A stretch of 64,000 nt of DNA from Spirochaetia bacterium (GTDB lineage Bacteria > Spirochaetota > Spirochaetia > DSM-16054 > Sediminispirochaetaceae): positions 96,001 to 160,000 of the forward strand of contig JAXHMY010000007.1 of the NCBI GenBank assembly GCA_034520965.1. The letters run 5' to 3'. The translations under genes were made by a program, and so were the position numbers. The number at the start of each line of letters is the position of its first letter. Position 1 is the stretch's first letter. The notes beneath the pieces are model-generated. The model saw only the letters and a program-made list of their open reading frames with translations. It searched no databases and was not told where the DNA came from. Positions 44,532 to 63,664 of the stretch are shown here, in pieces.

Positions 44532-44535
44532 GCTC

Positions 44536-45657: not shown

Positions 45658-45680
45658 TGTAAAACCTCCGATGAGTTGGT

Positions 45681-45710
45681 AGTAACACGAATAGTCTAAT
45701 GCGTGCTACT
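45681..45710. promoter_or_regulatory. Putative NikR operator
   Basis: AGTAACACG-N12-CGTGCTACT (core GTAACAC-N14-GTGCTAC, 28 bp) between nikR and the SBP start. Confidence 0.7.
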
Positions 45711-45775
45711 CACAGAGAGGCTACAGGGTATCTTTTTCTCTGTCAATGCGGTGCTCGCCTGCACGCGGTAGGCGG

Positions 45776-46202: not shown

Positions 46203-46227
46203 ACATCCTCCTGGACCAATACTACCA

Positions 46228-46258
46228 CGGATGGGGAGGTTATATAAACTACGGATAT
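46228..46258 (+). repeat. Module-boundary motif copy 1
   Basis: CGGATGGGGAGGTTATATAAACTACGGATAT. Confidence 0.85.
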
Positions 46259-46272
46259 CTGGGGTTTTTTTA

Positions 46273-46301
46273 TTGACTAGTCAGACTAGTTAGTTTATAC
46301 T
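46273..46301 (+). promoter_or_regulatory. Sigma70 promoter with overlapping operator for phd-vapC
   Basis: TTGACT-N17-TATACT; palindrome TGACTAGTCA plus a second GACTAGT overlapping the -35 and spacer. Confidence 0.75.
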
Positions 46302-46320
46302 AATACTAAGGGAGGAATGT

Positions 46321-46563
46321 ATGCGTATATGGTCGCTACAGGATGCAAAGGCTCGTTTCAGTGAACTGGTGAATGTGTGCCTGGAGAGCGGGGCTCAGGT
46401 GATAACCCGGCATGGCCGGGAGGCGGTGGTGGTGTTGCCCGCCGATGAATACAGGCGGATCACGGCTCCGAAGCAGAGTTTAAAAGAGTTTTTTGTCGCG
46501 GCGCCGCGGGTTGAGTTACAGATCGATCGCTCCGGGGATACTGGACGGGAGGTGGAGCTGTGA
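46321..46563 (+). CDS. Phd/YefM family antitoxin
   Basis: WSLQDAKARFSELV, QVITRHG. Confidence 0.92.
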   Translation: MRIWSLQDAKARFSELVNVCLESGAQVITRHGREAVVVLPADEYRRITAPKQSLKEFFVAAPRVELQIDRSGDTGREVEL

Positions 46564-46979
46564 TTTTGCTCGATACCTGTGTGATTTCCGAAGTTTTGCG
46601 TCCGGATCCTTCGGCGGAGGTTGTTGAGTGGCTGGACAGCTTGCCGGAAGAGCAGGTGTATCTGCCGGCCTTGGTACTGGGGGAGCTGGAGAAGGGGGTC
46701 GAGCTGCTGCCGGAGGGGTCCAAGCAAACCGCCCTAAGGGTGTGGCTGGAGCAGCTGCGCCGGCGTTTTAGCGGGCGGATTTTGAGTTTTGACGAGGAGA
46801 CGGCGGTACGCTGGGGCGATCTAAGTGCCCGCTGTCAGGGTACCGGCCGGCGCCTGCCGGTGGTGGACGGGATGCTGGCGGCCACGGCTTTGCAGTATGC
46901 AGCCTTGCTGGCAACCCGCAATGTGGAGGGTTTTCGCGAGACCGGGGTAACGCTTATCAACCCCTGGGAGGCGGGATAA
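46560..46979 (+). CDS. vapC: VapC (PIN domain) toxin
   Basis: LLDTCVISE, DGMLAATA, LATRN; overlaps the antitoxin stop. Confidence 0.92.
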   Translation: MILLDTCVISEVLRPDPSAEVVEWLDSLPEEQVYLPALVLGELEKGVELLPEGSKQTALRVWLEQLRRRFSGRILSFDEETAVRWGDLSARCQGTGRRLPVVDGMLAATALQYAALLATRNVEGFRETGVTLINPWEAG

Positions 46980-46994
46980 GTAAACTAAGGATAT
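46973..46994 (+). repeat. Module-boundary motif copy 2 (partial)
   Basis: GGGATAAGTAAACTAAGGATAT overlapping the vapC stop. Confidence 0.55.
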
Positions 46995-47183
46995 AGTAAG
47001 TGTGTACAGACTGACACACAAGCTCACTCGGGCCGGCTACCGGCGATGGCCGGCGGGCTTCGGGCGGGCGGCAGCCGTCGCGCAGCGCGATAGCCATCCG
47101 CCCGGGCGGCCCCGGCCGTCTATGGAATTGCATTTTTAGAAAAAAGTTAAAGAGAGATACTGTACTCTCCAGCTTCCTTGTTG

Positions 47184-48518
47184 TCACCGGAATACGAAGG
47201 CCTGGGCATTTTCACTTGCTAAAAAGGTGTTGCCTTCAATTGCGAGAGCATCACCAAAAAAGAGATCGTCTTCGGGCGGGACAGGTGCGTAGAGTTTTGC
47301 CGTCAGCCCGTAGCTGCCGTTCTGATCATCAAAGACGAATACCGCCCCGGTGTTCCAATAGTCGGTGAAATCGACGTTGTTGTTTTCGTAGGGGGCCGCA
47401 ATCAGCACCCGGTTGCCCGAAATGGCTACGTTGTCGCCGAGCCGGCTGTGCTGATGCAGATCAAGCTGGATTTCATCCGTTGTATCGAGGTCGTCTCTTC
47501 CAAGTATGTAGGTATCGAGTGCCCAGCTGTTGCCGTCGTGAAGGTAAATATACCCCTTGCCGGTCCAGCCTCCGGTACTCTTGTCCAGATGGGATGCGCC
47601 GATAACCGCCGTATCCCCATCCAAATCGACACTTCGCCCGAAATTGTCCTTTGGGCTGCGGCTGTCAGTGGGGGGGACAAACTGGTCGGTCCGGCTCCAG
47701 GAGCCGTTGCTGTATTCGAAGGAGGCCACCGATCCGGAATTCGTGCCGTAGGTATCGTCGCCGGGCATACCGACCAGTGCCCGATTGCCTGAAATAGCTA
47801 CCTCCCAGCCAAAATTATCATTGTCGTTTTCCGTGGCCGGCTGCAGCTGTGTAGGTTCCCACACATCGGCACTGTTGAGGTCGAAAATATAGGCCTCTCC
47901 GCGGGTGGTAGATGTGGTATCTGTATTGCTGTTGTAGTGATCAGCCACCGGGGCCGATGCAATGATGCTGCTTCCATCCATATCCAGCATCCAGCCGAAC
48001 TTTTCCCCTCCCTCAGGGGTTTCTGCCCAGAGGCTGGTCATGTAGTCCCAGTTGTCGGTGGACGAGTTATATTCGAAAACCTGCACATTCCCAAGCCCGG
48101 TAGTATTACCTTCTTTGTAGTACGGGGTTCCAACCACCAGGTACTCATCCGTCATTGAGACGGCGGTGCCGAAGTAATAAAAGGTATGGCTCGGCCAGCC
48201 CTGCTCGGAGACCGGCTCTACAGTACCCTTATGGCTCCATGGCGAAGTGCTGCGATCGTAGATATGCACGACTCCCCGTCCGTTGGTGGGGCTCGTGTCA
48301 CCAGTATCACTAATTGCGGCAAAGCTCGGCGACATCGCCAGGCCCTGTCCAAAGCCGCTGCTGACTCCGTCGTCTATGGTATCCAAATGTTGCAGCTCGG
48401 CCGGCGGTTCGGGAGGGGATGCGGTCTCTCCCCCGCCGTTGTTCCCGTTATTACCGAGGGGCTGGTTACAACCCAAGACTATGAGTCCGGTAGCTAAAAG
48501 TAGAAGTACGTGTTTCAT
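47184..48518 (-). CDS. FG-GAP repeat beta-propeller lipoprotein
   Basis: Lipobox VLGC; repeated FG..VA.SG...VGAP...G.VY units. Confidence 0.85.
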   Translation of the reverse strand: MKHVLLLLATGLIVLGCNQPLGNNGNNGGGETASPPEPPAELQHLDTIDDGVSSGFGQGLAMSPSFAAISDTGDTSPTNGRGVVHIYDRSTSPWSHKGTVEPVSEQGWPSHTFYYFGTAVSMTDEYLVVGTPYYKEGNTTGLGNVQVFEYNSSTDNWDYMTSLWAETPEGGEKFGWMLDMDGSSIIASAPVADHYNSNTDTTSTTRGEAYIFDLNSADVWEPTQLQPATENDNDNFGWEVAISGNRALVGMPGDDTYGTNSGSVASFEYSNGSWSRTDQFVPPTDSRSPKDNFGRSVDLDGDTAVIGASHLDKSTGGWTGKGYIYLHDGNSWALDTYILGRDDLDTTDEIQLDLHQHSRLGDNVAISGNRVLIAAPYENNNVDFTDYWNTGAVFVFDDQNGSYGLTAKLYAPVPPEDDLFFGDALAIEGNTFLASENAQAFVFR

Positions 48519-48532
48519 GGGTGGTATCCTTT

Positions 48533-49789
48533 TTATTTAGGTGATTGGTAGACGAAGAGCTCATCCCCGATGCTGCCGTTGTCGGCATTGAAATAGAGCC
48601 GGCCGTCGATCGCGGTCATACCGTAGGGGTAACTGCTGCCGGATCCCGGGTTGATGTCCCACACCAGCTCGGCGTTTTGTCCGTTATAGCGCCAAAGCTC
48701 ACGTCCGTGGCTGCCGTCGTCGGCTGAGAAGTAGAGCTGTCCGTCGTAGACTTCCAGGCTTCCGGGATAGTAGGGGGTATGTCCACCGGCGATATCATCG
48801 TGCCGGGTTACCGTATTCCCATCGTAGGAGTAGATGTACTCGCGCACGCCGTTGTTCGCGGTAAAGTAGAGCTTTGTACCGTATACCGTGACATCGCCGA
48901 TTTGCGCGTTGCCGCCGCTGCGAATAGTGGTTATTTGTTCATAGATTTCATTGTTTCCATCGGAATCGCCCTGATCGTACATGTACAGCTCGCGTCCATC
49001 TCCGTTGCCGCTGTCGGCCTCGAAGTAGAGATTTCCGTCGTAGACGAGCAATTCCGCGGGCATTGAACCGGTGGCACTGGGATTCACTTCTTCAAGGGCC
49101 GGCAGTTTCATGCTATTGGAAGCGCTGTCGTAGTAGTAGAGCTCCGAGTCGGAGTTGGTTTCGGCATTGAAATAGAGGGTATTGTTGTAGACAGTAATGT
49201 AGGCCGGCCATGAGGAGTACGTTCCGCTGAGGCCGGTGCGGAACTCTACCGTCGAGCCGTCGTAGCGGTAGAGGTTTTTCCCGTTACTGCCGTCATTGCC
49301 CTGAAAATAAATGTAGCCGTCATGGACGACCGCATGGCCCCAATGGCCGTCGCCGGCGCCGCTGTTGATATCTGCGGCCAGCGATGCACTGTCGCTGCCA
49401 GAGTTCACTTTCCACAGTTCCATCCCGCTGGCACTGTTTTCGGCCTGGAAATAGAGTGTGCCGTCGAACACGACAAAGGAATCAGGGTCGGAATCGTCAC
49501 TGCCGGAGTAGATGTCCTCTACCAAAGTGGCACTTGTCCCGTCGTATTTCCACAGTTCTACGCCATGGCTGCTGTCCTCGGCAGCGAAGTAGACTGCACC
49601 GGCATGGCCGATGAAATACTCCGGATCTGAGCTGCCGGAGCCTGCAACAATATCGGCGGCCAGCTCTTTGATTTCCGGTCGCGCATTGGTACCTCCGGCA
49701 CCGGTGCTCTCACAGCTCATAAGAATACTCAATGCCCCAATAAGGGTCACGGCCATTATAGCTGTCGTCATAATCTTGTTTGTTTTCAT
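48533..49789 (-). CDS. ELWxxDGT repeat lipoprotein
   Basis: Lipobox LMSC; repeats LYF.A....G.ELW.YDG, DI..GSGSS.P. Confidence 0.88.
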   Translation of the reverse strand: MKTNKIMTTAIMAVTLIGALSILMSCESTGAGGTNARPEIKELAADIVAGSGSSDPEYFIGHAGAVYFAAEDSSHGVELWKYDGTSATLVEDIYSGSDDSDPDSFVVFDGTLYFQAENSASGMELWKVNSGSDSASLAADINSGAGDGHWGHAVVHDGYIYFQGNDGSNGKNLYRYDGSTVEFRTGLSGTYSSWPAYITVYNNTLYFNAETNSDSELYYYDSASNSMKLPALEEVNPSATGSMPAELLVYDGNLYFEADSGNGDGRELYMYDQGDSDGNNEIYEQITTIRSGGNAQIGDVTVYGTKLYFTANNGVREYIYSYDGNTVTRHDDIAGGHTPYYPGSLEVYDGQLYFSADDGSHGRELWRYNGQNAELVWDINPGSGSSYPYGMTAIDGRLYFNADNGSIGDELFVYQSPK

Positions 49790-50198
49790 TTAACCTTACC
49801 TCCTAACTCAAGAATACTGCGCTTCCGGAGGATTACACATAGTCAATTTGTCCAGGGGGTAAAGGCCTGGAGTTAGGATAAAAGGCTGTAACAATAGTTG
49901 GTTGGAAGAGGGAGGGCCGGTGCGGCTTACTTTTTGTCGTGTGTTTCGGTTGCGCCCTGCAGTCGCCCGCGGAGCCAGACCAGCTCGGTTCGTGATCCGA
50001 GACCAAGTTTGACAAGTGCATTCGAAAGATGGCTGTCCAACCTAATCACAAGTGCGTGAAAACCCGGGGTATCGAGCTCCAATAGGGATAATGGCGTCGA
50101 TATTTGCTCTCTGCTTATAAAGGGTTTCTCTGCCATACATTATAGTAATAGTAATGTATGGCAGGAAAATCAAATTCTCACTCTATTTCCCTTTAAAC

Positions 50199-50685
50199 CT
50201 ACTCTCCAACCACGATCGTGAGCGCGCCGCTTGATGGCAGAGTCTCACCGTCGGGATAAGTCCCATTGAAACTGACCGAATCGGCGAGGTTTCCATCCAC
50301 ATAGATGCTCAAGGTAACGTTGGTAAGGGTAACCCCATCGTCTTCGCCGTCCGAGTCCAGCATGGTGATGTTGATACTTGCACCCGTGCAACCGGGAAGG
50401 GTCTCGGTAAGGAGCGTACCATCATCCGGATCAATGGAGGCGTACTTGGGATCCGATGGGTCGGAGAAATCTCCCGAGGGTTTCACCCAGGTGGTCGCTA
50501 CACTTACGCTGTCGGTGTAGCTTCCACTGAACCTCCACTCGACTGTGTGGGTGGTAGTATCATCGCAGGTGCTGCTGCTCCCTCCATCCATCTGCACCGG
50601 CACTCTCACAACCGATGAGCAGTACGATCAGGCTTACCAGAATCAAAGTTCCGAATAGTGCTGTTTTTATGTATTTGTTACTCAT
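50199..50685 (-). CDS. Hypothetical lipoprotein (frameshift near 50590)
   Basis: AGGAGG RBS; MSNKYIKTALFGTLILVSLIVLLIGC signal joins the DGGSSSTCDD... ORF in another frame. Confidence 0.7.
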
Positions 50686-50863
50686 ATTTTCCTCCTTTTA
50701 TAGTAACTAATATGGGGCGGAAAAACGGGAATCTCTGTAGTCAATTTGTCGAGGTGGTTTCGGTTTCGCCGGGAGGTATGGAAGAAACACTAAGATGCAG
50801 GTAAAAGAAATTCTAAACAGGGCTGTTAAGCTATATATTAAGGCCGCTGTGGCTGTCTTCATC

Positions 50864-50980
50864 CGGATGGGGAGGTTATGTAAACTACGGATATATCGGG
50901 TAGGGCAAGGTGGGCAACACGGATGGGCACAGATGGTGTTGGCAGGTTAACCGGCTCCTAACTGTGTTTATCAGTGGTTG
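50864..50980 (+). repeat. Module-boundary motif copy 3 with extended imperfect palindrome
   Basis: CGGATGGGGAGGTTATGTAAACTACGGATAT...CAACACGGATGGGCACAGATGG...CTGTGTTTATCAGTGGTT. Confidence 0.85.
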
Positions 50981-51116
50981 CGGAAATATTTTTAAAATAA
51001 CTGAAAAGTGAACAACAGAAGGTTTCTTCCGAGACCATCTACAATTATATTGACTAATGCTGGAATGGAGTTAGGCTTGAATTGTTGCAGCTGGGACACA
51101 TTTAAGACCTGACCTT

Positions 51117-53999
51117 TTACTCCACAACTGGCTCAGGTTTTTCAACTGGGAATTTGATGGTAAATTTTGGAGAGGGGCTCTTTTCTAATTCCAGGGTTCC
51201 CTCTAACTGCTTTATGAGGATAGATATTAGCTTTAAGCCTGAGGTTTCCGTATTCTCTATATCAATATCATCGGGAAATGGATTTCCGCTATTCGAAAGG
51301 CTAAAGCGATAGAGCTTGCTGTCTTTATCTTCTACGAAGCTCACGGTAAATATAGCTCCATCTTTTGGAGGTAAAGCCGTATTTAATAGCGTTTGTGGCT
51401 ATCTCGTTTGCGATTAAACCCAGGGAGATCGTAGTCTTGGTGGAAATGCTCAGCTCTTCAATTTCATTGATTATTCGTACATTCCTGTCGGCGGTGGAAG
51501 AGAATATTGTTTTCAAAAGTTCCTGGAAGTATTCTCTTACCTCAATTCTGTCTAATTCAGTGTAATGCTGGAGCTTCTCATGCACCAATTGAATTGCATC
51601 TATTCTATGTTTCAGGTCGGATAGATCAGCTTCAGACTCTGAGTCTTTTAAGCTGATAAGAGAGGATACCATGGAGAGGTTGTTTTTTACCCTGTGGTTG
51701 AGCTCTTTCATCAGGAAGTCCTTTTCTATGAGAGCTTTTCTGAGGGCTTTTTCATTGTTCTTGCGCTCGGTAATATCGCGAATGCTCGATACCACGAACT
51801 TCTTTTTTCCTTCGGTGTAGAGGTAGGCACTGGCACTTCTATCGGAATAACGCAACACCGTCTTTTCTTATATTCTCGGTTTCGAAGGTAAGATGTTGTT
51901 TACGCTTTAGTTCTTGGGCATACTGATGCATTGCAGATACGCTGTTCTCCGGTATTACACTTTTAGCAGACATATTCAGGAGCTTTCCCTGCCGTACTGC
52001 AATAAAATACTGGCCTGTTCATTTACCGCGATATTCTGGCTCGGCAGATCATCCTCGTCTATCCCATGGACGAAGATGGCGTCGTTTGAGTAATTAAAGA
52101 GCAAGCGGTATTTTTCTTCACTCTCTTTCAAGGCTTTCTCTTTTTCTCTTCTTTCTGTGAGGTTCCGGGAAACCCCGAAGTGATACTTCTCCTCCGTCGA
52201 GCATGAAAAAGATGCCATTCACTTCGACGGGTATCTCCTTTCCGCTTTTGTGTCTATGGATAGTCTCAAACAATACAGTGGTCCCCTCCGGTTGGTCCTT
52301 CCAGAATTCGATAAAACGCGCAGATGGAAAGTTTAGGTCGACATCGTCGATTGTTAATTGCAGCAGCTCTTCCTTTGAATAGCCGAGCATTTTACAGGCA
52401 GTATAATTGGCCTGGAAAATTTTGCCCGTTTCGTTTAGTAAATACACCGCATCGATACTGTTTTCCATCAAATTGCGGTACAGAGCCTCCTTTGCGCGAA
52501 GCTCCTTTTCCGCCTGTTTTTGCTCGGTAATGTCCATTACGGTAAAGGTAACCCCCTGGGAGATGTCGGCCGGATGGATGGGGGATGAGGCAAGAAGAAC
52601 TTCCATGATCGTCCCGTCTTTTTTTTGCCAGCGGGTTTCAACCCTTCCGCTGCCCTGTGTATCTATCTGACGGTACTTCTCTGAGCCGACGTACTCAAAA
52701 TCCTCTTGAGACGCATAGAAAATCCGGGCGGGCTTACCGATAAGCTCATCACGGCAGTAGCCGTCATAAAACAGAGTTTTTCGTTTGCTTCTACTATTGT
52801 CCGTTTTTTTCTGCCTTGAACGACCCCGATGCCCGTGGGAGCCGCCTTCAAGATGCTCGTGATTTTGTCGCTGCTCTCCTTCAATTCCGCCTCCACCTGT
52901 TTTTGGGCTGTCAAGTCATGGCCAATAATGAGGGCTGCGGGTGAAGAGTTGAAGGTTATCGGTATCGAGGTGGATTCGCAGCAGCGGGTTTTTCCGTCCC
53001 GGCGAAGGATAATAATTTCCTCGGCAGGATTTTTACGGCCGGCTTCGAGTTTTTCCATTCGTTCTTTGACTCTTTTGAGCGAGTCCGCGGAAACAGTCGG
53101 CCCCACGGGTGTACCTATGAGCTCTTGGGCAGAGGCATACCCCCACATTTCCGCCGCACTGGGGTTGCTGTAGACATATTTCCCATCTTGAACTACGAGT
53201 ATAGGAGTAGGTGCGGAACGCAGCAAAAGATCGTACTGTTCCCGCTGCCTGTCGAGTTCCTCCTGCATGAGCTTGGATTCGGTTATATCCTGGACGTGGG
53301 TTACGAAGTGGAGGGGTTTTCCCTCTGAATCACGCAGAAGCATGCTGTTGACATCGGCCCATACTACCGTGCCGTTTTTGCGGATATAGCGTTTGATGAA
53401 CTGTCTGCTATCGGTCTTCCCATCGAGCATTGATTTCATTTGATCGACACTCATTTCGACATCTTCCGGGTGGGTCAGTTTCGTAAAATTAACCGAGAAA
53501 ATTTCCGTCGGTGAATAACCGAGCATAGAGGCAAAGGCCTCGTTTACCCGCAGGAGTTCTCCGGTGGGGGAGGTGAGGACCATTCCAACGGAGGTATACT
53601 CAAAGGCTTTGCGGAACTTATCCTCGCTCTCCCAGAGGCGAAAGGCCATCCTGATAGAGGCAAGCAGTACCGTCTCGCCAGAGTTTTTAACGATGTAGCC
53701 GTAGGAGGTAATGCCCTCGGTCTTTTCCACTACCGCCGGCTCAGTATGGGAGGAGAGAAATACAACCGGCAGGTCGCGGGTCTCGAGTATTTTTTCGGCA
53801 GCTTCGGTTCCGTCCATTCCAACGCCCAGATCGATGTCCATGAGTATAAGGGAAATGTCGGGATCCCAGGCAGCCTCTTCGACGGCTTTCCGGCCGCTGT
53901 AGACGGTGCTTACCTCAAAGCCGGTGCTTTTTCAGCATCCGGGCTTCGGACATTGCGATAATTGCCTCATCTTCGACTCAAGAGGATCTTTCTGGACAC
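51117..53999 (-). pseudogene. REC + multi-PAS + HisKA_2 histidine kinase (several frameshifts)
   Basis: KILL(V)EDEAIIA...LMDIDLG receiver; several PAS/PAC units (THVQDITE, VMDITE); ELNHRVKNNL; NEIATNAIKY split over five ORFs. Confidence 0.85.
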
Positions 54000-54150
54000 T
54001 AGACACCTTCTTCGGTTGCTTCTTCAGCTCCTTCTTCGGAGGAACTCTCAGGCTATACCTGATTCGTAAGCCATAGCCATATCGACTATCAAGTTAAATA
54101 AAGTGCTTGATTAAATTGGGACCATACTTGAAGTGGGTCTGGAGCGATCT

Positions 54151-54312
54151 CTATGTCGCATTACTAAAAGCTCGCTGTTGGCTTCCGGCTCCGCTGGTAT
54201 CTCCTGCACCGGCGCTCTCGCAACCGGTAAGCAATACCATAAGGCTTGCCAGAATCAAAGTGCCGAATAGGGCTGTTAAGCTATTTATTAAGGCCGCTGT
54301 GGCTGTATTCAT
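54151..54312 (-). pseudogene. Short lipoprotein or orphan lipoprotein-signal remnant (53 aa)
   Basis: MNTATAALINSLTALFGTLILASLMVLLTGCESAGAGDTSGAGSQQRAFSNAT*; paralogous to the 5' end of the 50199-50685 gene. Confidence 0.55.
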
Positions 54313-54313
54313 C

Positions 54314-54390
54314 CGGATGTTATATAAACTAGGGATATATTGCCCTGGTGGCGTGCTTTACGCGTATACTCGTCGCGCATACTCGTAGTT
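54314..54390 (+). repeat. Module-boundary motif copy 4 (lacks GGGAGG)
   Basis: CGGATG-TTATATAAACTAGGGATAT...CTCGTAGTT. Confidence 0.8.
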
Positions 54391-54443
54391 ATTTAACTTG
54401 TCTCTGCTGCACAAGACGTGTATGATCTAGTTCAGTTAACATC

Positions 54444-55646
54444 ATGTTGTATTTAAGCTTGCAGTTGTGGAACCTGGTCTCGGTATTTCTCTGGTACCGG
54501 TTCCTGTCGGACAAATTACACTACGTTATTGACAAGAACAGCGTGCACGGACTCTGGGGTTTCTTTTTTGCGGGAGTGGTCAGCACGTTCACTATTGAGA
54601 CCCTACATGCCATTTATCCCCTCTCGATTTTTGTACAGTCGATTTACGAGAGCGATTTTCTCTACAGTGTTCTGGTCACCGGGGTAATCGAGGAGTTTGC
54701 CAAGTGGACGGCCTTTATCCTGATTGCCCACTATGTGGGCACGGTGAAGGAGCCCCAGGACGGGGTGCTGCAGGGAGCCGCGGTGGGCCTCGGGTTCGGC
54801 TTTATCGAGAACATCATGTATATAGACAGATACACCGAGCTATTTATAGGCGTGCGCCCGATTCTCAGTACCGGCGGGCACATGCTCTACGGTGCGGTGT
54901 GGGGCGGACTGTATTCGGCGGCCCGATGGAGCAACGTGAGTTCGCGCGACCCCGGGGCTTACCGGGTAGCGTTTTTGGGGCTGTTTTTGATGGCCTGCGT
55001 GCACGGGCTGTACAATTCAGTGGTGGTGTATGGCTTACTTTTTGGCGTACTGGTAGATTCAGTTGTCTTGCATTCTTCGTTTGTTCTTTTCATGCATCTG
55101 ACGAAGCACTCGCCCTACCGGAACTTTCCGCTTAGTAAGGCCAAAACGGCTATTCCGGGGATCAGGCGCGGGCTGTTTTTTAACCCCAAGAGCCCCATTC
55201 TCAACGACCGGATGGCCACCTACCTGATGCACTTAGGTGAGCACAGGCGGGCCATTCAGTATTTTTATGACGCCCTTCCCCGGGCTGCGCAGAAAGATAG
55301 AATTAGGTTTCTAGCGGCGGTCTGCGAGTTTGCCTTTCTGAAGAATGAGAAGGGGCGGCAGCGGATTATCAAAACTTGGGGCCGCCTTTCGGACAGCGAC
55401 CGCAAGAAGGCCCGCAGCCAGCTTGAAAGGATTTTGGCGCGGAACAACACCCTGCTGCACAATGTGGAACAGGTGATCGACTCGCCCTTCAGCGTGCGTC
55501 GCGGAAAACAGGGCTATGTACTGGCCAAGGATTTGAAGGCCCGCAGAATCAACCGCAAGTACCGGCGCAGCAAAGCAATCGATGCGGTGGTGAAGACGTT
55601 GTCGGAAGAGGAGAAGCTTAAGCTGCGGCGGAAGCTGGGGCTGTGA
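54444..55646 (+). CDS. PrsW-family intramembrane protease with soluble C-terminal extension
   Basis: IEEFAK, GLGFGFIENIMY, GHMLYG, VHGLYN. Confidence 0.88.
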   Translation: MLYLSLQLWNLVSVFLWYRFLSDKLHYVIDKNSVHGLWGFFFAGVVSTFTIETLHAIYPLSIFVQSIYESDFLYSVLVTGVIEEFAKWTAFILIAHYVGTVKEPQDGVLQGAAVGLGFGFIENIMYIDRYTELFIGVRPILSTGGHMLYGAVWGGLYSAARWSNVSSRDPGAYRVAFLGLFLMACVHGLYNSVVVYGLLFGVLVDSVVLHSSFVLFMHLTKHSPYRNFPLSKAKTAIPGIRRGLFFNPKSPILNDRMATYLMHLGEHRRAIQYFYDALPRAAQKDRIRFLAAVCEFAFLKNEKGRQRIIKTWGRLSDSDRKKARSQLERILARNNTLLHNVEQVIDSPFSVRRGKQGYVLAKDLKARRINRKYRRSKAIDAVVKTLSEEEKLKLRRKLGL

Positions 55647-55757
55647 GGTTTCTATGAAGCGGCATGGCAAATTCCGGTTTTACTCAATTTGCTGGGTCGC
55701 CGATAAGTAGACAATAAGATAAATTTCAAAAAAGAATGTTATAAAAAGGAGTCAAAA

Positions 55758-57296
55758 ATGAGTATCAGTAAAAAGGTATGTATATTATTCGTACTTATTA
55801 CCATTCTGGCTGGTTGTGCTACTTCTCAGTCGACCAGTGCAGAGAAAAAGGATGATTATTATAAAAGCTGGAGTATAGATTACGGCCGGCCTAAAGAGTA
55901 TGTAGAGCAGGGGCCCTACACTCAGATTGATCCGCAGTACCTCGCCGAGCTGGATATGATCGGTGAGATTTCTACTACTGATGATTTGCATAAAATCTAC
56001 CGTTATGTGTTTGATGAATACGCCCATCCTTCGGAAGTCGGGTATGAAGAGGACCCACTGCAGCGGGTTGAACAAATCAAGACAAATACGATACTCGAAC
56101 TGAAAATCCTGAGCGGTGAATTGTCTTACGCAACCTTGATGGCAAGTGTACTCCGGTATAAAGGTATACCGGCGCTCGTTGCACACGGAATGGCAATTGG
56201 CGGTGTACTGAATACTAATTCCGATTCAGATTATACCTTTGTTGAAGCGTATGTTGACGGCCGCTGGGTTCTATTGGATCCCACCAACCGAGATAAGCCA
56301 GCCCGCATAGGAGAGAGCTATGATCCTGCAAAGCCTGTAATCGATTTCGATGAGATCGATCTTGTTTCCCGACGAGGAGAGCAGATTGGCTATTACATTG
56401 TTGCGAAAGGATTAGATATGGCAGAAAGCGGATACCCCTCTCAGAAATCGCTGGAAAAAATCAAAGAAATTCATGAGGATTATATTAGAGAATATTTTTC
56501 AACCGAATCTTTCGAAAACACTTCTGGTGAAACAGAGAGCGCAGAGAAGGGCAAACCTCAAAATTCAGAGGAACCTGAGCTGAAAACAGTTTCCCTCACA
56601 AAGGAAGATGTGCAGAAGAAAATTCAAAACAGGTGGGGCATTGATTACAGCCGGCCCTCTCAATATCTGAAGCAAGGTCCGCAAACTCGAATACCACAAG
56701 AGTATCGGGAAGAGATTGATAATATTCTGGGGCCGGTAGAAAAAATCGGGTCAATTAATACAGGTATACGACTACATCCACGGTAATTATCGCACCGAAC
56801 CCGCCGGGGGGCGCTATATCGGAACAATGACTGTTGAAAAAATTTTGAGAGAAAGATTCTTACCGGCTGTCATGATCATGGCTTGTTTGTTGCTGCAATA
56901 CTAAGGCATAACGGAGTCCCGGCGATTCTTGTGGATGGTGTCGACTTGAATTTTGTTGAAAAGTATCCGAATCATGACGGGTACGGCGGCCATGTGTACG
57001 TAGAGGCGTATGTTGCTGGCAGTTGGGTTTTACTTGATTCAACGAACAGCCGCTATGTTGTCGACTACGATTATACCGACCCGGTGATAAATGAATTTGA
57101 GAACGAAAATGATCTTGAGCACCTCGGCAAATATGTGATGTTCAAAGGTCTCGACAGCAACTCTTACGGGATTGAAAAGCATGAAGATTTGATCAGTTAT
57201 TTGATAGCATATGCTGAATACCTGAATGATGAATATCAAGTTGAACCGTATTTTGAGAGATATCCGCGGCCGGAGAGCCGGCACATTCAGGATTAG
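55758..57296 (+). CDS. Lipoprotein with tandem transglutaminase-like domains (frameshifts near 56760 and 56853)
   Basis: Lipobox LAGC; duplicated W.IDY.RP..Y..QGP.T.I and VEAYV.G.WVLLD.TN; second copy has TGCHDHG and GHVYVE. Confidence 0.78.
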
Positions 57297-57470
57297 GACT
57301 AAAGATAAGTGTAATTTGGCGGATCCCTCCCATCTATTCGAGCGGTAGTTTTCTTCAGGCGGGTGCATCAGACTGAATACCTCGGTCTGTTCGTAGTGGC
57401 TGATTGTTAGAATAGATGTTGTGGCCGGCGAAAGCCGGCCCTTCATCCTTTCTTTATCCGCGGTTATACT

Positions 57471-57815
57471 TCACACATCACTGCTTACCGAGAGAACTCC
57501 GTACATTTGTGTAATGACGTGTCGAAGCTGTTCTGCTGTTATCTCTTCAATAAAACCTATTCGGTTTCCGATTCTCTGTTTTGAGATGGTCCGAATCTGG
57601 TCGACCGCAATTTCCGAGGCTTTGTCGGTAACCGAAGTTTGAACCCGGCTAGGCCAGGACGGGTGAACCTGGGAGGTTATCGGGCAGACGACGATTGTGT
57701 GAAGATAACGGTTCATAAGTTGATCGCTTACGACAACCGCCGGCCTGGTTTTGATCATTTCACTTCCGGTACCTGGATCAAGGTGTACCCAGTATACCCC
57801 GTAGCGCTCAATCAT
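57471..57815 (-). CDS. mazF: MazF/PemK toxin
   Basis: YWVHLDPGTGSEMIKTRPAVVVS, CPITS, DQIRTISKQR. Confidence 0.92.
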   Translation of the reverse strand: MIERYGVYWVHLDPGTGSEMIKTRPAVVVSDQLMNRYLHTIVVCPITSQVHPSWPSRVQTSVTDKASEIAVDQIRTISKQRIGNRIGFIEEITAEQLRHVITQMYGVLSVSSDV

Positions 57816-58062
57816 CGATTCCGTCCTCATCGGTCGTTTGCCATGCTTCCCACTCCATCGAATCCTCCCGTTCGGCCGCCATTTGCTGATACGCCGCTTC
57901 CCATGAAAGGGTATATTCCTGCTGTATGGGCCTGAGAAATAGACCGTTACGGTTTTGCTCTATTTCCATGTCGGAGCCTTCTTTCAGGCCGTACAAGTTA
58001 AGAAGCTTTTTGGGAAGGCGAATTCCGCGGGAGTTTCCGATCTTGATTATCTTTGCTTTCAT
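57808..58062 (-). CDS. mazE: AbrB/MazE antitoxin
   Basis: KIIKIGNSRGIRLPK; acidic C-terminus; overlaps the toxin start. Confidence 0.92.
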   Translation of the reverse strand: MKAKIIKIGNSRGIRLPKKLLNLYGLKEGSDMEIEQNRNGLFLRPIQQEYTLSWEAAYQQMAAEREDSMEWEAWQTTDEDGIDD

Positions 58063-58097
58063 GTAATTACAGTAATAACATTTTTAGTGCATGTCAA
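58062..58097 (-). promoter_or_regulatory. mazEF promoter and operator
   Basis: Minus strand TTGACA-N17-TACTGT ending 6 nt before the ATG; palindrome TGTAATTACA plus GTAATAAC. Confidence 0.7.
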
Positions 58098-58157
58098 ACC
58101 ATTGCGGATGGGTGGGAGTAGTTTTATTTTCTTTTCCAATGGATAACACTGAAGCGT

Positions 58158-58540
58158 TTATACCTGCATGACCATATACGCTTCGCGAAAAGCCGCTCCT
58201 GCCAGAATCAGTACCGATAGCGTCACCGCTAACCACTGTTCGGTTTTCAATGAACTACGGTCCTGTCTTGGAACCGGTTTTGAGGGGGTTCGAAATGTCT
58301 CTGAGTGATTGGCCGAAATGGAATTGGTGGCGACGGCCAACAAAACTGCCGCTGCCATTTCATAAAGGCCGGTGCGTCCGAACACCGGCCATCTGTGAAA
58401 GCGGCGACAGCCCACGAATGAGGCCTTCCGGCAAAAAGAGGTAGCTAAGGGTCCAGCTGGCAAAAAACAGCGCCAATCCCAGTAGGTACAGGCTGATAAA
58501 GCGTACCACGACATGTTCGTGTTCCAAGTAGCGAAGCATC
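58158..58540 (-). pseudogene. Membrane protein remnant
   Basis: MLRYLEHEHVVVRFISLYLLGLALFFASWTLSYLFLPEG then a frame change to YEMAAAVLLAVAT...LILAGAAFREAYM. Confidence 0.45.
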
Positions 58541-58613
58541 GCGTTTCTTCCTTGGTGGTTTTTGTATCGATGGGTAGAGTGTAGCAAAGCAAGCAGTATT
58601 AATCGAGCAATTT

Positions 58614-58643
58614 AGATAGGGAGGTTATATAAACTAGGGATAT
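58614..58643 (+). repeat. Module-boundary motif copy 5
   Basis: AGATAGGGAGGTTATATAAACTAGGGATAT. Confidence 0.85.
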
Positions 58644-58769
58644 ATGGTTCTGACCGCACGCTTTGCGTGATTGGCATGTGACCACTGGAGGGCAGTTGTT
58701 GCCGGTTTCATCTATTTTCTACTTGAGCTTTTAGTTTACCATTTTACCCTGAATCCCTATACTGTGACC

Positions 58770-60134
58770 ATGAAGTTGATCATAAAAGTATTTATCAGCC
58801 TGGCAACTATGCTTTGTTTTTCGCCTTCCCTCTTCGGATTGGAATGGGAGTTGCGACTGCAGAACGACGCGCTGGCCTGGGCTCACTCCACGGAGTGGGA
58901 TGATTTTCGCACTGCCGGAGGCAGCCTGCTGCTAACTGAGGGGCAGATGGAATTCCAAACAGGATACTACGTCCTCACCCGCCGGTCACCAGACGGCATT
59001 GAGCCTACGGAACGCATCGACGAGATACTCCTGGGGGCGGCGCGCCGCTTTACCCTACTGCAGAGTAAGCAGCTTGAACACCATACAGAGGAGGGGGTCT
59101 TTCTCCGCCCCGGGCTTATGTTGAGGCTTTTCGGAAACTTCGGCGGCTTGGCAATGCAGAAAGGGTTTCACAGCGGCATAGAGGCAAAACGAGCCATCCC
59201 GGAGAACTACAGCAACCCGGACTGGGAGATGGGTATCAACGCCGATATCTCTGCCCGTTACGAGATTATTCCCGCTACCGGCTTTTTTTGGACAGCAGAA
59301 GCTACTGCCGAGGTGCGCAGCTCTCGCTCGATGTCGGTGAGCATTGAAAACGGTCTGAATCTGCCCGCCTCGGACTTCGACAGCCGCCTGGATGCGGGAT
59401 GGAAGTATAGGTTTGGAGAAAGCCCAATCGCTTCGCTTGAGGCACTTCGGGCTCAGACTGATGGACCCTACCTCCGGCTGCGCTATGGCACCCCGCCTTT
59501 GCTCATATCCCGCACCGCCTATCTTTTTACAGGCTGGGGTGAAGGCCGGGTTGAAGTTTCGTTTCCGGTGGTGCGCAGCGAAGAAGGGCGTTCCGGTAAA
59601 ACTGGAAATGAGCAGATACGAGAGATTCGCAACCTCACGGAGTTTGGGGCACATACTGACCGGGGTACCCTATTCCAAAATACCCTCATCTATCCCGTTG
59701 CCATACCGGTATCAGAGAAGGCTCGGTTTCTATTGGGCACCGGAGCCGGGTGGAATATCGGCTTTGTCGACATCATAGAAGGGACAGACATAGAACGAAG
59801 CAACGGATTTCGGCTTTTGCTGGAGGCGTCTGTAAATTGGCGAGTCGGTGGGTGTGAGAGCTGGCCTTATCTATTTGCCTCACCTGGTGTGGAATGGTTT
59901 CGTTTGGTGATAGATTCAGGCAACAGAGCAGAAGTGCTTGATGAGGATCTGATCCTCTCTCTTAAGGCCGGAAGCGGCATCCGTATTGGAGTCCGAAGCG
60001 GAGAGCGTGGAAGTGCAGGGATAGAGCTCTCATGGTGGTGGAATTTACGTGCTGGACGTAACGGAACCGGCGAATACAAGGGCCCCGGAAGCAGGGCCGG
60101 CACAAGTCTCTCTTTCTATGTTGCCCGGCTTTAA
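58770..60134 (+). CDS. Hypothetical exported, probably outer-membrane beta-barrel protein
   Basis: Signal peptide MKLIIKVFISLATMLCFSPSLFG; amphipathic beta strands. Confidence 0.6.
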   Translation: MKLIIKVFISLATMLCFSPSLFGLEWELRLQNDALAWAHSTEWDDFRTAGGSLLLTEGQMEFQTGYYVLTRRSPDGIEPTERIDEILLGAARRFTLLQSKQLEHHTEEGVFLRPGLMLRLFGNFGGLAMQKGFHSGIEAKRAIPENYSNPDWEMGINADISARYEIIPATGFFWTAEATAEVRSSRSMSVSIENGLNLPASDFDSRLDAGWKYRFGESPIASLEALRAQTDGPYLRLRYGTPPLLISRTAYLFTGWGEGRVEVSFPVVRSEEGRSGKTGNEQIREIRNLTEFGAHTDRGTLFQNTLIYPVAIPVSEKARFLLGTGAGWNIGFVDIIEGTDIERSNGFRLLLEASVNWRVGGCESWPYLFASPGVEWFRLVIDSGNRAEVLDEDLILSLKAGSGIRIGVRSGERGSAGIELSWWWNLRAGRNGTGEYKGPGSRAGTSLSFYVARL

Positions 60135-60261
60135 AGGACGGTGGCAAAGCCTTCAACCTGTCAGCAGCTCGACTATTTCGAATCTGTGCTCTCTGGCCAC
60201 TTGACCTATCGTGTTAGTGTGTATCTAATATTTAAAGATTAAAAATGTCCGGGGAGGATTT

Positions 60262-61746
60262 ATGAAGAATGTACGGGAAGTGAATTTTAGAAATCTGCTG
60301 GCTTATGGCTCGGGTGATATTTACGGCGGCGGATCTTTTCTGCTTATCAGTATGTTTTTTCTCTTTTATCTTACGAATGTGGTTGGCTTAAGCCCCGCAG
60401 TAAGCGGTATTATTATTGGGCTGGGAAGCATCTGGGACGGTCTTTCGGACCCTATGATGGGTTATATCTCGGATAATACCCGTACCCGTTTAGGCAGAAG
60501 GCGGGTTTTCTTTTTAATTGGAATTATTCCAATTGCGGTAAGCTTCATTTTGATGTGGCTTCCTATGCGCTTTGACAATTCTGCAATGACTGCTGTGTAC
60601 TTTGGTTTTGCATATATTCTTTTTAAAACTGTTTTTACCATGGTCATGGTTCCCTATGCTGCGTTAAATGCTGAGATGACTCCTGATTACAAAATCAGAA
60701 CCAGGCTTTCAGGTGCTAGGATCATTTTTTCTCAATTTTCCGCCCTGCTCGCGGCAACTATACCTGCTTTGATTATTAAGGCCTTTCAGCCCATTGAAAA
60801 AGGCTATGTTGTTATGGCGGTTATTTTTGGTATTTTTTATGCGGCCCCCTGGATTTTAGTTTTTCTCGGTACCTGGGAAGACTCAGACCTGAATGAGGCT
60901 AAAGACCCAAAGGCGATAAAACAGGTTTTTTCAGAATTTTTAACTTTAAGAAAAAATAAGACTTTTCTGTATCATATCTTGATGTATCTTTTCGCTTATA
61001 CCGCAATGGACGGACTGATGAACCTTTTCAAATTTTATCTTGAATTGAACCTGCAAAAGGGGCATCTTTTTTCGTTAGCTATGGGTTCTTTGATGGGTAC
61101 ACAAATTCTTATGATGAGTGTGTATGTGTATATTTCCAATAAGAAGGGCAAGGGTTTTTCGTACAGGATGGGTTTTATCCTCTGGGCAATTGGTATGGGT
61201 GCGGCCTTTTTTCTGACAGAGGATTCTTCTACCCTGCTGCTTGTGCTCACTTCAATTCTGCTCGGTACTGGTGTCAGCGCCGCAATTATGATTCCCTGGG
61301 CGATTTTACCATCTGTCATTGATGTTGATGAGCTTATTACCACTAAACAAAGGGCAGGGACCTATTCCGGTTCTATGACACTGGTGAGGAAAATTGCTCA
61401 AGGTATAACTATCGCCGGTATTGGAGCTATGTTGTCGCTTATTGGTTTTGTTTCACCCGAGATTGTAGTAGTGAATGGAATACCAAAGGCTGTTGCCCAG
61501 GTGCAGAGCCCTGAAACCCTTGCCAATTTAAAGCTTCTCTTCTTTGCCACACCTGTGGTTTTTTTAATTACGGGTTTTCTTGTTTCATTGAAGTTTAAAA
61601 TTACTCCGGAGACTCATAAAATTCTTACCGATGAAATAGCCCGTCTTAAAGCCGGTGGAAGCAAGGCGGATGTGAGCCCTGAAACAAAGGCCGTGTGTGA
61701 AGAACTCACAGGCAGTAAATATGAAAAGCTTTATAAAAAACAGTAG
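60262..61746 (+). CDS. MFS glycoside-pentoside-hexuronide:cation symporter
   Basis: AYGSGDIYGGG, WDGLSDPMMGYISDNTRTRLGRRR, DVDELIT..QRAGTYSG. Confidence 0.92.
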   Translation: MKNVREVNFRNLLAYGSGDIYGGGSFLLISMFFLFYLTNVVGLSPAVSGIIIGLGSIWDGLSDPMMGYISDNTRTRLGRRRVFFLIGIIPIAVSFILMWLPMRFDNSAMTAVYFGFAYILFKTVFTMVMVPYAALNAEMTPDYKIRTRLSGARIIFSQFSALLAATIPALIIKAFQPIEKGYVVMAVIFGIFYAAPWILVFLGTWEDSDLNEAKDPKAIKQVFSEFLTLRKNKTFLYHILMYLFAYTAMDGLMNLFKFYLELNLQKGHLFSLAMGSLMGTQILMMSVYVYISNKKGKGFSYRMGFILWAIGMGAAFFLTEDSSTLLLVLTSILLGTGVSAAIMIPWAILPSVIDVDELITTKQRAGTYSGSMTLVRKIAQGITIAGIGAMLSLIGFVSPEIVVVNGIPKAVAQVQSPETLANLKLLFFATPVVFLITGFLVSLKFKITPETHKILTDEIARLKAGGSKADVSPETKAVCEELTGSKYEKLYKKQ

Positions 61747-61803
61747 AAGCGTAAGACCCTCGGCTGCGCTTACTGCGGCCTGGTTTTGTAACCTGAGGTT
61801 TGG

Positions 61804-61877
61804 GTTGTATCCTGGGGTCTATGTTGTATCCTGGGGTCTATGTTGTATCCTGGGGTCTATGTTGTATCCTGGGGTCT
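61804..61877 (+). repeat. 19-bp tandem repeat, ~3.9 identical copies
   Basis: Unit GTTGTATCCTGGGGTCTAT at 61804, 61823, 61842, 61861. Confidence 0.95.
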
Positions 61878-61895
61878 GGGCGGGGGGCCGGCCCG

Positions 61896-62058
61896 CGGAT
61901 GGGGAGGTTATATAAACTACGGATATATCGGGCTGCACACGGGGCCCTTCGGCGGGCCTATCAGGGGGGCAACACGGATGGGCGCGGATGGGGATGAGTA
62001 TAAAAATTTAGGGTTTATAAATATATCTGTGTATATCCGTGAAAATCCGTAGTTAAAT
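61896..62058 (+). repeat. Module-boundary motif copy 6 with extended imperfect palindrome
   Basis: CGGATGGGGAGGTTATATAAACTACGGATAT...CAACACGGATGGGCGCGGATGG...ATCTGTGTATATCCGTGAAAATCCGTAGTTAAAT; AACTACGGAT/ATCCGTAGTT is a perfect 10-bp inverted pair. Confidence 0.88.
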
Positions 62059-62202
62059 TCTTTTCTTTTCTTTTTTGAAGCAGCAGGCTGTTTTGAGGCC
62101 CCGTAGAGTTAACCTGAATAATTCGGGTGGGCAGCTTTGTTATTCCTCAGTATATCCTGCATATCTTAAATCTGGTACTCTTTAAGATATTTAAACATGG
62201 GG

Positions 62203-62640
62203 TTACCCGAATTTCTTGTGCATGAACCTTCGGTAGGCTTTGCCGAATTTGGGAATATTATCAAAAATATCCCCCCACAGGTCATAGTAGTCTCTCTGTT
62301 CGATGATCATAGAATTTTCATCAAGGGTCAGCTTTGAGCAGCCATAAAGGGTCGAGCTGGGAAACTTTTTAAACATCATTGTCATCTCCCATTGCATAAA
62401 GATTACCTGCTCATTCTGTGCCATGGAAACAATCTTGAAATTCAGCTCTTTGCAGCGACCTGCCAGGCGGTTGCAGAGGGCCTCAAAGTTCTGTTTCCCC
62501 TCAACCCTTTGAATGGAATCCTGGAAAATGATGTTCTCGTGATAATAAGGAAACAGATGGGACCAGTCGGGCTTGCCGCTGGTGTTATATGTGTTAGACC
62601 ACAGCTCCCTTATTGTTTCAAGGCTCAGTTTTTTTTCCAT
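62203..62640 (-). CDS. SnoaL/NTF2-like protein
   Basis: YHENIIFQDSIQRVEG, IIEQRDYYDL. Confidence 0.85.
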   Translation of the reverse strand: MEKKLSLETIRELWSNTYNTSGKPDWSHLFPYYHENIIFQDSIQRVEGKQNFEALCNRLAGRCKELNFKIVSMAQNEQVIFMQWEMTMMFKKFPSSTLYGCSKLTLDENSMIIEQRDYYDLWGDIFDNIPKFGKAYRRFMHKKFG

Positions 62641-62660
62641 ATACGTCCTTCATTTTTTCT

Positions 62661-63107
62661 TTAGGCAGTATGAAAATTTATCAGATAGATAATAAGTGCA
62701 ACGGTGAAGGTAGCGATAAACCCGATAATCATTATGCCGAGTGTTTTGGAATATCCCCTGGGAGAAATCTGGCCGGCCCTGTCCATCTGTTTAATGGCCG
62801 GATACAGCCGTGAGAAGAAGGTCGATATCGAGAATATGAGTGCGATAATAGTGAATACCTTTGTAGTACTGTTTCCGGTTATTATGATGCCTATCAGCAG
62901 GACAATAAATATCAATTTTGTCCCGGCTAGCCAATCTATTAGATAGGTTACCAGTGCGTGTACTTCAGGGTCGGTTTTTGATTTTTCATATGCCTTAAAA
63001 ACCCCCATGCCGTTTCCCCGGCGTGTTTCAGGAGTCAAATAGAGCATCAGCACATTCGAAAGTTCCAGAATACCAAAAACAATCAGGACAATAGATAGAA
63101 TGTCCAC
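62661..63107 (-). CDS. Hypothetical membrane protein
   Basis: Four hydrophobic segments; GGGGAG RBS. Confidence 0.7.
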   Translation of the reverse strand: MDILSIVLIVFGILELSNVLMLYLTPETRRGNGMGVFKAYEKSKTDPEVHALVTYLIDWLAGTKLIFIVLLIGIIITGNSTTKVFTIIALIFSISTFFSRLYPAIKQMDRAGQISPRGYSKTLGIMIIGFIATFTVALIIYLINFHTA

Positions 63108-63205
63108 AGCAATCTCCCCGATCAGACTGTTTCCTGCCTATAGTTCCGTTCCCCACCTGGTCACTCTTCATTTAATAATAGTTTGTAATGATGCCGGCAG
63201 CAAGG

Positions 63206-63232
63206 GGATGGGGAGGTTATATATACAACGAT
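63206..63232 (+). repeat. Module-boundary motif copy 7 (degenerate)
   Basis: GGATGGGGAGGTTATATATACAACGAT. Confidence 0.7.
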
Positions 63233-63293
63233 TGACCAGCAGTTTGAACAGTGCTACTTTAACTTACTATTGATAATCTGAAGAGAAGAGAGT

Positions 63294-63641
63294 ATGAAAA
63301 AAATAAGTGAGCGGGGTCGGTTTCTTTTCAAGCTTGTCGGTGTCAGTGCATTAGTGTTGTTTATGATCTCGGCAACATCCTGCGCCACAAGCGGCGTGCT
63401 CGGATTCGGCGATCCCCTGGCAACTGCAAGCTATGTAGACAGTGGAGATTCAAATGCATCGGAACGTATTTCTACATCCGAAGAGGAGATCGAAGCGTTA
63501 AAAGCCGAGATTGCCGTTCTGAAGAAGGAACTTGAGAGGGTCAGCAATATCAAGACCGACATTGATGAAATGCCGAAAGAGATGCTCCGTCAGCTGGTGG
63601 AAGCCCTGGAGTCCTATCTTGAGACATTCGAGGAAGAATAA
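63294..63641 (+). CDS. Coiled-coil lipoprotein
   Basis: Lipobox ATSC; heptad-rich C-terminus. Confidence 0.7.
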   Translation: MKKISERGRFLFKLVGVSALVLFMISATSCATSGVLGFGDPLATASYVDSGDSNASERISTSEEEIEALKAEIAVLKKELERVSNIKTDIDEMPKEMLRQLVEALESYLETFEEE

Positions 63642-63664
63642 AGGAACCGTACACGAGGCCGCCC

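Follow-up and report, generated by a model that had tools for sequence, protein, structure and literature searches.

A mosaic inverted-repeat element bordering gene modules in variable regions of an uncultured spirochaete genus

What kind of sequence separates the gene modules of a variable region when those modules differ from one relative to the next? The question is raised by a stretch of 64,000 nucleotides (the window), positions 96,001 to 160,000 of contig JAXHMY010000007.1 (C7), from a Spirochaetia bacterium of the Sediminispirochaetaceae (assembly GCA_034520965.1, here G000; 3.35 Mb, 86% complete). A first-pass annotation had described seven co-oriented dif-like motifs in the last third of the window and read them as a cassette array of a tyrosine-recombinase system. 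All seven copies were recovered at the positions described, on the plus strand, with none on the minus strand and none in the first 46 kb. Comparison with nine congeners (10 genomes of the genus in all, 68-97% complete) and with metagenome contigs indicates that the 33-bp motif described first forms only the left end of a mosaic inverted-repeat element, which is longer at 90-300 bp.

The element runs from the left end AACTACGGAT to between 0 and 4 inverted ATCCG(T/C)(A/G)GTT arms. Its parts follow in the order CGGATGGGGAGG-TTATAT-AAACTACGGATATAT, inner units of the CACGGATGG type (9-10 bases), an AT-rich spacer and the inverted ATCCG(T/C)(A/G)GTT arms. A catalogue of 101 junctions or sites in 43 loci was assembled, from which 84 sites with full context were kept for arm counts after removal of a match inside a gene (L032), reversed right arms and sites short of flank; right arms are missing in 33 of the 84 and number one in 30, two in 10, three in 8 and four in 3. 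A core of 21 bp is identical in 69 of the 101 copies, and the interior is variable. In the outer stem, AACTACGGAT pairs gaplessly with ATCCGTAGTT, and 10-14 bp are continuous in the predicted folds. The left end is in its turn an arm-unit variant, an arm at C7:178925 being followed by an almost exact inverse of the left end. When eight elements were folded as DNA, seven had z scores of -1.5 to -5.3 for the top strand and -1.2 to -5.8 for the bottom strand; the value for the decayed copy 4 was 0.1. The fold of copy 6 has -20.9 kcal/mol (z -2.15 against the folding tool's own shuffles). Three array loci (L001, L055 and L020) had no match in Rfam at E 0.5. Target-site duplication, a hallmark of miniature inverted-repeat transposable elements (MITEs), was not evident in the aligned element flanks, where no systematic search was made. 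In L001 (C7:162410-162612 of G000), the left and right motif halves stand with 191 bases between them, which fold into two hairpins.

The distribution of the element is narrow. A weight-matrix scan of the genome returned 17 sites at 27.8-52.3 bits, compared with 16.9 for the best match outside the arrays and about 14 for two half-copies, and a reversed-pattern control gave 0 matches in G000. The resulting 19 copies lie on three contig stretches, 15 on C7 (142-176 kb), 2 at the start of C3 and 2 on C5; because C3 and C5 modules share single contigs in the congeners G002 and G004, the latter two stretches probably form one locus. Hundreds of copies dispersed in both orientations, the picture named beforehand as that of an ordinary repeat family, are thus not seen. 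With up to 2 mismatches, a 20-base pattern was found in 5 of 9 congeners (4-14 copies each). None of 7 other members of the family has it, and 24 genomes further away yielded one occurrence; in metagenomes, an exact 24-base pattern matched 28 times, on 24 contigs. The inner-unit pattern occurred in 0 of 400 other genomes of the phylum, a sample with no congeners in its tallies, and single related arms were seen in other Spirochaetia (9 genomes outside the genus, of 301 searched). The reach of the findings is limited by the left-end motif being found in one uncultured genus only. Arms of the same hairpin family were also observed in other settings: eight or nine tandem units of 65-95 bp in L065:1067-1588 (genome G101) each end in such an arm, and in L059:1470-1520 (G241) an arm stands in frame at the start of a restriction-specificity-like gene.

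The cassette-array part of the first description was borne out. The sites are confined to variable regions, are co-oriented, and border modules that have been gained, lost or re-ordered among relatives. In all 58 adjacent pairs (23 multi-site loci), the two left ends point the same way, and the longest cargo open reading frame (ORF) lies on both strands (25 plus and 19 minus in upstream classes, 16 plus and 24 minus in downstream classes). Synteny unbroken across the motifs was not observed, as homology blocks end at the elements. BLAST blocks between G000 and congeners start or stop there, for example at -8/+137 on C5 against -8/+132 in G002, and at -15/+64 on C7 against -15/+64 in G004; this evidence is a comparison of alignments. 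Among module classes seen at least 2 times in the 101 junctions of the 43 loci, at least 2 different neighbours were counted for 15 of 20 classes upstream and 14 of 18 downstream. Both counts are a little too high, because some classes are split by short contigs and near-identical strains fill some of the rows. In six genomes only, the corresponding numbers for classes seen in at least 2 genomes are 10 of 12 and 8 of 11. Furthermore, the arrays begin at different core genes in different genomes.

The points at which modules have been exchanged were approached by comparing sequence identity between element pairs according to the module that they share (six genomes, 54 sites, with pairs defined by Rpn nuclease genes removed). 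Upstream of the element, identity is 0.75 for pairs sharing only the upstream module, 0.60 for those sharing only the downstream module and 0.55 for those sharing neither. The values for the interior are 0.76, 0.73 and 0.66, and just before the last arm they are 0.66, 0.77 and 0.65. Sequence upstream of position -13 therefore follows the upstream module and sequence on either side of the last arm the downstream module, with the interior weakly linked to both. The linkage is a gradient and not a single switch point, which speaks for several points of exchange. Breaks in truncated junctions lie at -1/0, +5 and +7, and the breakpoints appear spread over the element. Copies 3 and 4 are preceded by a direct repeat of about 130 bp, which exceeds the motif in length.

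Nuclease genes are the most frequent companions of the element. Rpn (PF04754, TIGR01784) is the commonest module and borders 25 of the 101 junctions, and in a whole-genome Rpn search the matches of at least 74% identity lie on array contigs or beside an arm. An element is touched by 17 of 19 Rpn starts and 18 of 22 ends, although most of these loci were picked by the motif and the counts are partly circular. Outside the genus, the sole element match of G016 (another genus) is just 3' of an Rpn gene, and both of the 2 matches in G182 (another family) stand before nuclease-like genes that have just the C-terminal part in common with Rpn; the leader motif is the same there and the interior is inverted. 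A GTDB scan with Rpn gave 12 loci, three on array contigs and nine distant with at most 1 chance unit. Two metagenome loci and the end of the G000 array hold fragments of a second nuclease gene, GxxExxY. Hairpin-family arms, counted as AAC-led 9-mers with inverted partners, flank 12 of 30 GxxExxY genes in the class compared with 15 of 106 control windows (p 0.004, not corrected for kinship); the exact arm type is present at 2 of the 30. In G088 a GxxExxY gene lies between two direct copies of the same hairpin, and the intact GxxExxY gene of G007 has no element downstream. Only 1 of 5 array-bearing genomes searched has an intact GxxExxY, and the PF13366 profile has no match in G000, which holds a fragment only. 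Kingston et al. describe RecA-independent recombination and nonspecific nicking by Rpn, with RpnA a nonspecific endonuclease (PMC5350276).

The process that we put forward, with about an even chance of being right, is that direct copies of the element would recombine by sequence homology, whereby the genes between them would be deleted, duplicated or exchanged as a block. A locus may be seeded by an element-flanked nuclease gene. Recombination between direct copies, within the chromosome or with incoming DNA, would then add or remove one module together with one element, and all copies would for that reason keep the same orientation whatever the direction of the cargo. Crossovers may occur at several points inside the element, which would give a mosaic interior and a changed number of arms. 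Nicks by Rpn or GxxExxY may start some events, and toxin-antitoxin modules may slow the loss of modules. The part of the array in the window would be its older, decayed end.

Several findings weigh against this process. No recombination event between elements has been observed, and the linkage gradient is confounded by kinship, some rows being near-identical strains. Several half-sites break exactly at G/TTATAT, and a toxin-antitoxin module of G002 ends in an apparent collapsed attC that is joined at the same G/TTATAT. The contrast of a near-invariant 21-bp core with a variable interior fits a protein-binding or cutting site better than neutral homology, and a variable stretch of 16.7 kb without a site in G002 implies that genes also turn over without the element. 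With regard to the nucleases, distant Rpn genes occur without the element (four in the family and nine elsewhere), G007 has 9 motif copies but no Rpn match, and G001 has Rpn (54%) without the motif. Zhong et al. argue that Rpn proteins are not transposases (PMC10400941). Since the nuclease link has evidence for and against it, Rpn may be cargo, trigger or both.

The near-invariant core leads to a first alternative, in which the element is the fixed-crossover site of a dedicated enzyme, either a PD-(D/E)XK nuclease of the array (Rpn or GxxExxY) cutting the folded element or another recombinase. The touching Rpn starts and ends, the element beside nuclease genes in three other lineages and the excess of arms at GxxExxY genes all speak for such an enzyme. 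The scattered breakpoints and mosaic interior argue against a fixed crossover, no gene among those searched is common to all array-bearing genomes, and the published nonspecificity of RpnA (PMC5350276) also points the other way; we regard this alternative as unlikely. In a further proposal, Rpn and GxxExxY would recognise and cut their own fold-back repeats, and repair between direct copies would capture, excise and re-order multi-gene modules in a cassette system free of integrases. This proposal is speculative and slightly more doubtful. If true, an integrase-free system would parallel two integron-type arrays in one genome, and two large orphan nuclease families would gain a DNA target.

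It is quite unlikely that the elements are passive debris resembling repetitive extragenic palindromes (REPs) or MITEs, lying in variable islands whose modules turn over by other means. Such debris would be consistent with the single arms in other Spirochaetia, one arm of the kind inside a cassette of the C1 array (below), copy 4 as an extra piece between genes that are adjacent in relatives, and the existence of variable stretches free of sites. Complete co-orientation with cargo on both strands, and homology blocks that end at the elements, would not be expected of it. There is also no genome-wide dispersal, and only 1 of the 10 genomes of the genus showed a RAYT-type gene (PF01797, Y1 HUH), which lies on a different contig.

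As for the tyrosine-recombinase system proposed at first, no tyrosine recombinase tracks the arrays across genomes. G000 has 14 tyrosine-recombinase matches, none of them on C7 or C5. A frameshifted intI at C3:79.7-81.0 kb heads its own array, with 21 attC on C3 and 4 elsewhere, and a tyrosine recombinase of 357 aa at C1:865 kb lies at the end of a second low-GC array, whose sites are of a different type (13 there and one more on C9). The intI gene is present in 3 of 5 array-bearing congeners, the short integrase in 2 of 9 congeners (one of them without the motif), and at least 1 of the two in 5 of 6 array-bearing genomes; neither was found in G002 (94% complete, 14 copies). These integrases, together with the AAC start and GTT end of the arms, raise the case that the hairpins serve an integron-type integrase in trans as attC-like sites, in a cluster of attC sites that has no integron integrase (CALIN). 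Two toxin-antitoxin cassettes, of yefM-relE and higBA type, have relatives of 69-75% identity among element-bounded modules, one of which ends in a possible collapsed attC at its junction. On the other side, each integrase has its own array of unrelated sites, and neither of these site types (25 copies for C3, 14 for C1) was found in the element loci. The bases beside AAC and GTT are fully paired with no unpaired spacer, the right arm is often missing, cargo runs in both directions, and the modules reach 4.3 kb with 41-62% GC, compared with about 28-38% in cassette-dense bins of the C3 integron. Taken with the result for G002, use of the hairpins by an integrase is improbable. Details of the two integron-type arrays were also recorded. 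In the C3 integron (C3:40000-81000), attC measure about 130 bp, the cassettes are low in GC, partly duplicated and interrupted by insertion-sequence-like genes, and they include toxin-antitoxin, Fic-like and methyltransferase-like genes. The C1 array (C1:843000-866000, L147) carries toxin-antitoxin cassettes, its 357-aa enzyme scores well below the integron-integrase cut-off, and two 9-mer hairpin relatives flank a Fic-like gene within it (C1:846680-847420).

The dif or pdif interpretation, with an 11-6-11 layout, did not hold. The dif test of Kono et al. uses complementarity of positions 7-12 and 17-22 (PMC3025954), and all 101 sites fail it: of the 6 inner pairs, 0 are complementary in 72 sites, 1 in 7, 2 in 21 and 3 in 1. 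The likely true chromosomal dif is a single-copy sequence at G000:C2:178561-178588, found in 9 of 10 genomes of the genus and resembling published dif of Leptospira and Brachyspira; it was picked, by means of published spirochaete dif rows, from the output of a loose dif scan that was mostly noise. Its 4 inner pairs are at, not above, the threshold of the published test (PMC3025954). In the proposed comparison with GC skew, the C2 candidate lies 0.7 kb from the cumulative skew maximum, and the motif-bearing C7 holds no skew shift. The absence of GGGAGG from copy 4 had been taken to mark the central region. The whole 214-bp stretch that holds copy 4 is missing from related contigs (two other runs), with the flanking PAS kinase and PrsW genes adjacent, as they also are in G004; copy 4 is therefore no evidence for a 6-bp central region. 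It is very improbable that the sites are pdif-like sites of XerC/XerD, or half-sites bound by XerD alone, in that the 6-8 of 11 right-arm bases shared by window copies with the C2 candidate, the presence of xerC/xerD-like genes and the position of the G-rich strand on the leading-type strand of all three contigs are set against 1-4 of 11 left-arm bases shared, no XerC arm, the failed pairing, the lack of a skew shift on C7, and best-conserved bases that reach 10 bases past the supposed arm and are inverted-repeat partners of the right arm. A 17-copy 'dif-like' family of the loose scan was rejected as part of a longer dispersed repeat, and a reading of the G-rich left flank as resembling FtsK-orienting polar sequences (KOPS) was dropped, such words being skewed on most contigs.

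Among known systems, the element appears by analogy to work most like the intergenic mosaic elements of Neisseria (NIMEs) and clusters of bacterial interspersed mosaic elements (BIMEs) or REPs, and to be arranged like CALIN without qualifying as attC. With NIMEs (dRS3 and RS arrays; PMC1797815) it shares short inverted repeats around variable interiors of 50-200 bp and a copy number that varies at syntenic places, and for NIMEs a promoting role has been proposed in the exchange of neighbouring genes, through homologous recombination or a specific recombinase (PMC1797815). It differs in a sequence unrelated to dRS3, in having about 19 copies in few loci, and in single elements that part whole modules in one orientation, the modules being re-ordered and not merely replaced as alleles. 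The absence of genome-wide dispersal and of any visible bias to gene 3' ends also separates it from REP and BIME. In REPIN-RAYT systems, a nuclease-type gene stands beside some copies. The genes linked here are PD-(D/E)XK nucleases, unlike the RAYT type. Intergenic fold-back repeats in mosaics, tied to recombination and plasticity, are shared with these systems (PMC3184786). Integrons and CALIN (PMC4889954) share co-oriented fold-back sites between exchangeable modules and toxin-antitoxin cargo, and fold-back ends of the form AAC ... GTT are present wherever there is a right arm (51 of 84 sites). Unlike attC, the element folds have no unpaired central spacer and no L box with extrahelical bases, and the genome's own attC differ in layout. 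Integron arrays differ further from these arrays, where many sites have no right arm, multi-gene modules of host-like GC lie on two strands, no integrase is linked, and the two integron-type arrays of the genome use other sites. To dif and pdif the element is likened by an 11-mer with some resemblance to a XerD arm and by toxin-antitoxin modules between sites. Sites of pdif type normally alternate in orientation. The neighbours here do not, and a separate likely dif exists at the terminus. Arrays of rpn (PMC10400941, PMC5350276) likewise hold several Rpn/YhgA-like genes per locus with variable ends. Zhong et al., as far as the available parts extend, describe duplication-type arrays without flanking inverted repeats, thought to grow by direct duplication (PMC10400941). 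Close Rpn copies here, unlike those arrays as published, lie between inverted-repeat elements and alternate with unrelated cargo.

Literature searches found no description of this repeat; preprint supplements were outside their coverage, and absence from print is not established thereby. The genome holds a cassette-like array with neither attC nor dif sites beside two integron-type arrays. Even under plain homologous recombination, this would be a clear case of a short repeat organising the exchange of multi-gene modules independently of their orientation, and the element offers a defined DNA substrate for testing sequence or structure targets of Rpn and GxxExxY.

Table 1. Element copies and gene modules in the array part of the window (window coordinates)
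Feature	Position	Strand	Basis
Copy 1, left end only, directly upstream of nikR-type gene, first array site	46228..46260	+	motif scan
phd-vapC toxin-antitoxin module	46321..46979	+	PF02604, PF01850
Copy 2, right half only, abuts vapC stop codon	46976..46996	+	motif scan
Three lipoprotein-like genes; first with FG-GAP repeats, third frameshifted	47184..50685	-	ORFs, Pfam
Copy 3: left end, inner CACGGATGG units, decayed right arm	50864..50979	+	motif scan, alignment
PAS/HisKA_2 sensor kinase, four frameshifted pieces	51117..53841	-	ORFs, Pfam
Duplicated remnant of lipoprotein leader also preceding copy 3	54204..54319	+	86% identity over 74 and 81 bases
Copy 4: decayed and short, with one right arm	54314..54390	+	folding z about 0
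PrsW (+), transglutaminase-like (+, frameshifted), mazEF (-) module	54444..58062	both	ORFs, Pfam
Copy 5, left end only, diverged	58613..58645	+	motif scan
487-aa gene (no Pfam match) and MFS transporter	58671..61746	+	ORFs, Pfam
Copy 6, complete: left end, inner units, AT-rich spacer, right arm ending ATCCGTAGTT	61896..62054	+	
SnoaL-like gene and membrane-protein gene	62203..63107	-	ORFs, Pfam
Copy 7, left half only	63205..63223	+	comparison with L050, L056
Lipoprotein gene opening next module	63294..63641	+	ORFs

The features of the window are listed in Table 1. A 25-nt probe matches copies 1, 3 and 6 exactly, and the divergence of copy 5 is in its left flank. The copies had been called intergenic; this is not wholly so for copy 2, the left side of which lies within the last vapC codons. 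Of the cargo names given at first, Phd, PIN, FG-GAP, HisKA_2/PAS, PrsW, transglutaminase, MazE/MazF, MFS and SnoaL were confirmed by Pfam, whereas the supposed outer membrane protein ('OMP'), two of the three lipoproteins and the membrane protein had no Pfam match. At the first site, homology with G002 covers the core genes and the first 18 bases of copy 1; beyond that point the genes of G002 are different ones, and G009 has a decayed element copy at the same place. The phd-vapC module follows the first site in G003, L053, L057 and G009, and is absent there in G002. Copy 6 is the only complete copy in the window and is followed by the leader TTTGAAGCAGCAG, the same leader as precedes Rpn genes. 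In L050 and L056, the sequence upstream of copy 7 is followed by complete element copies. The array runs about 19 kb past the window, to about G000:C7:179000, and intact elements cluster in this downstream part, where the cargo includes mazEF, HEPN/nucleotidyltransferase, SNF2, methyltransferase and WYL genes and three Rpn genes.

Candidate circles were considered in the contigs of four sequencing runs for window positions 44001-64000. Contig joints such as 63127 to 46225 and 46970 to 61896 have a short side of only 27-41 letters. Mapping of one repeat copy onto another accounts for them, and they therefore do not speak for circles. Neither the window nor four array loci contain a tRNA gene, the only one on C7 being 100 kb upstream. 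Frameshifts are many in G000, in the window (51117-57296, PAS kinase and transglutaminase) and in Rpn, intI and a xer-like gene. Contigs of other runs differ by single-base indels at 56748 (four runs) and 56852 (three runs); with two frameshifts absent from related contigs, some of the frameshifts may be assembly errors.

Other repeats accompany the arrays. A GC-rich hairpin cluster lies 3' of vapC (window 47020-47125), and similar small hairpins are nested in many of the elements of relatives. Directly before copy 6, a 19-bp unit is repeated five times in tandem (window 61786-61880) and is mostly missing from a related contig. A repeat that is 80 bp or longer and contains a GAAGTC/GACTTC palindrome is dispersed over 17 places in G000 in both orientations (for example C7:73326 and C2:178082), and copies of it were also seen in variable regions of G003 and G004. 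In L002 (3251-19670), genes of bacteriophage exclusion (BREX) type and other defence-like genes, named from reading the sequences, stand directly after the array.

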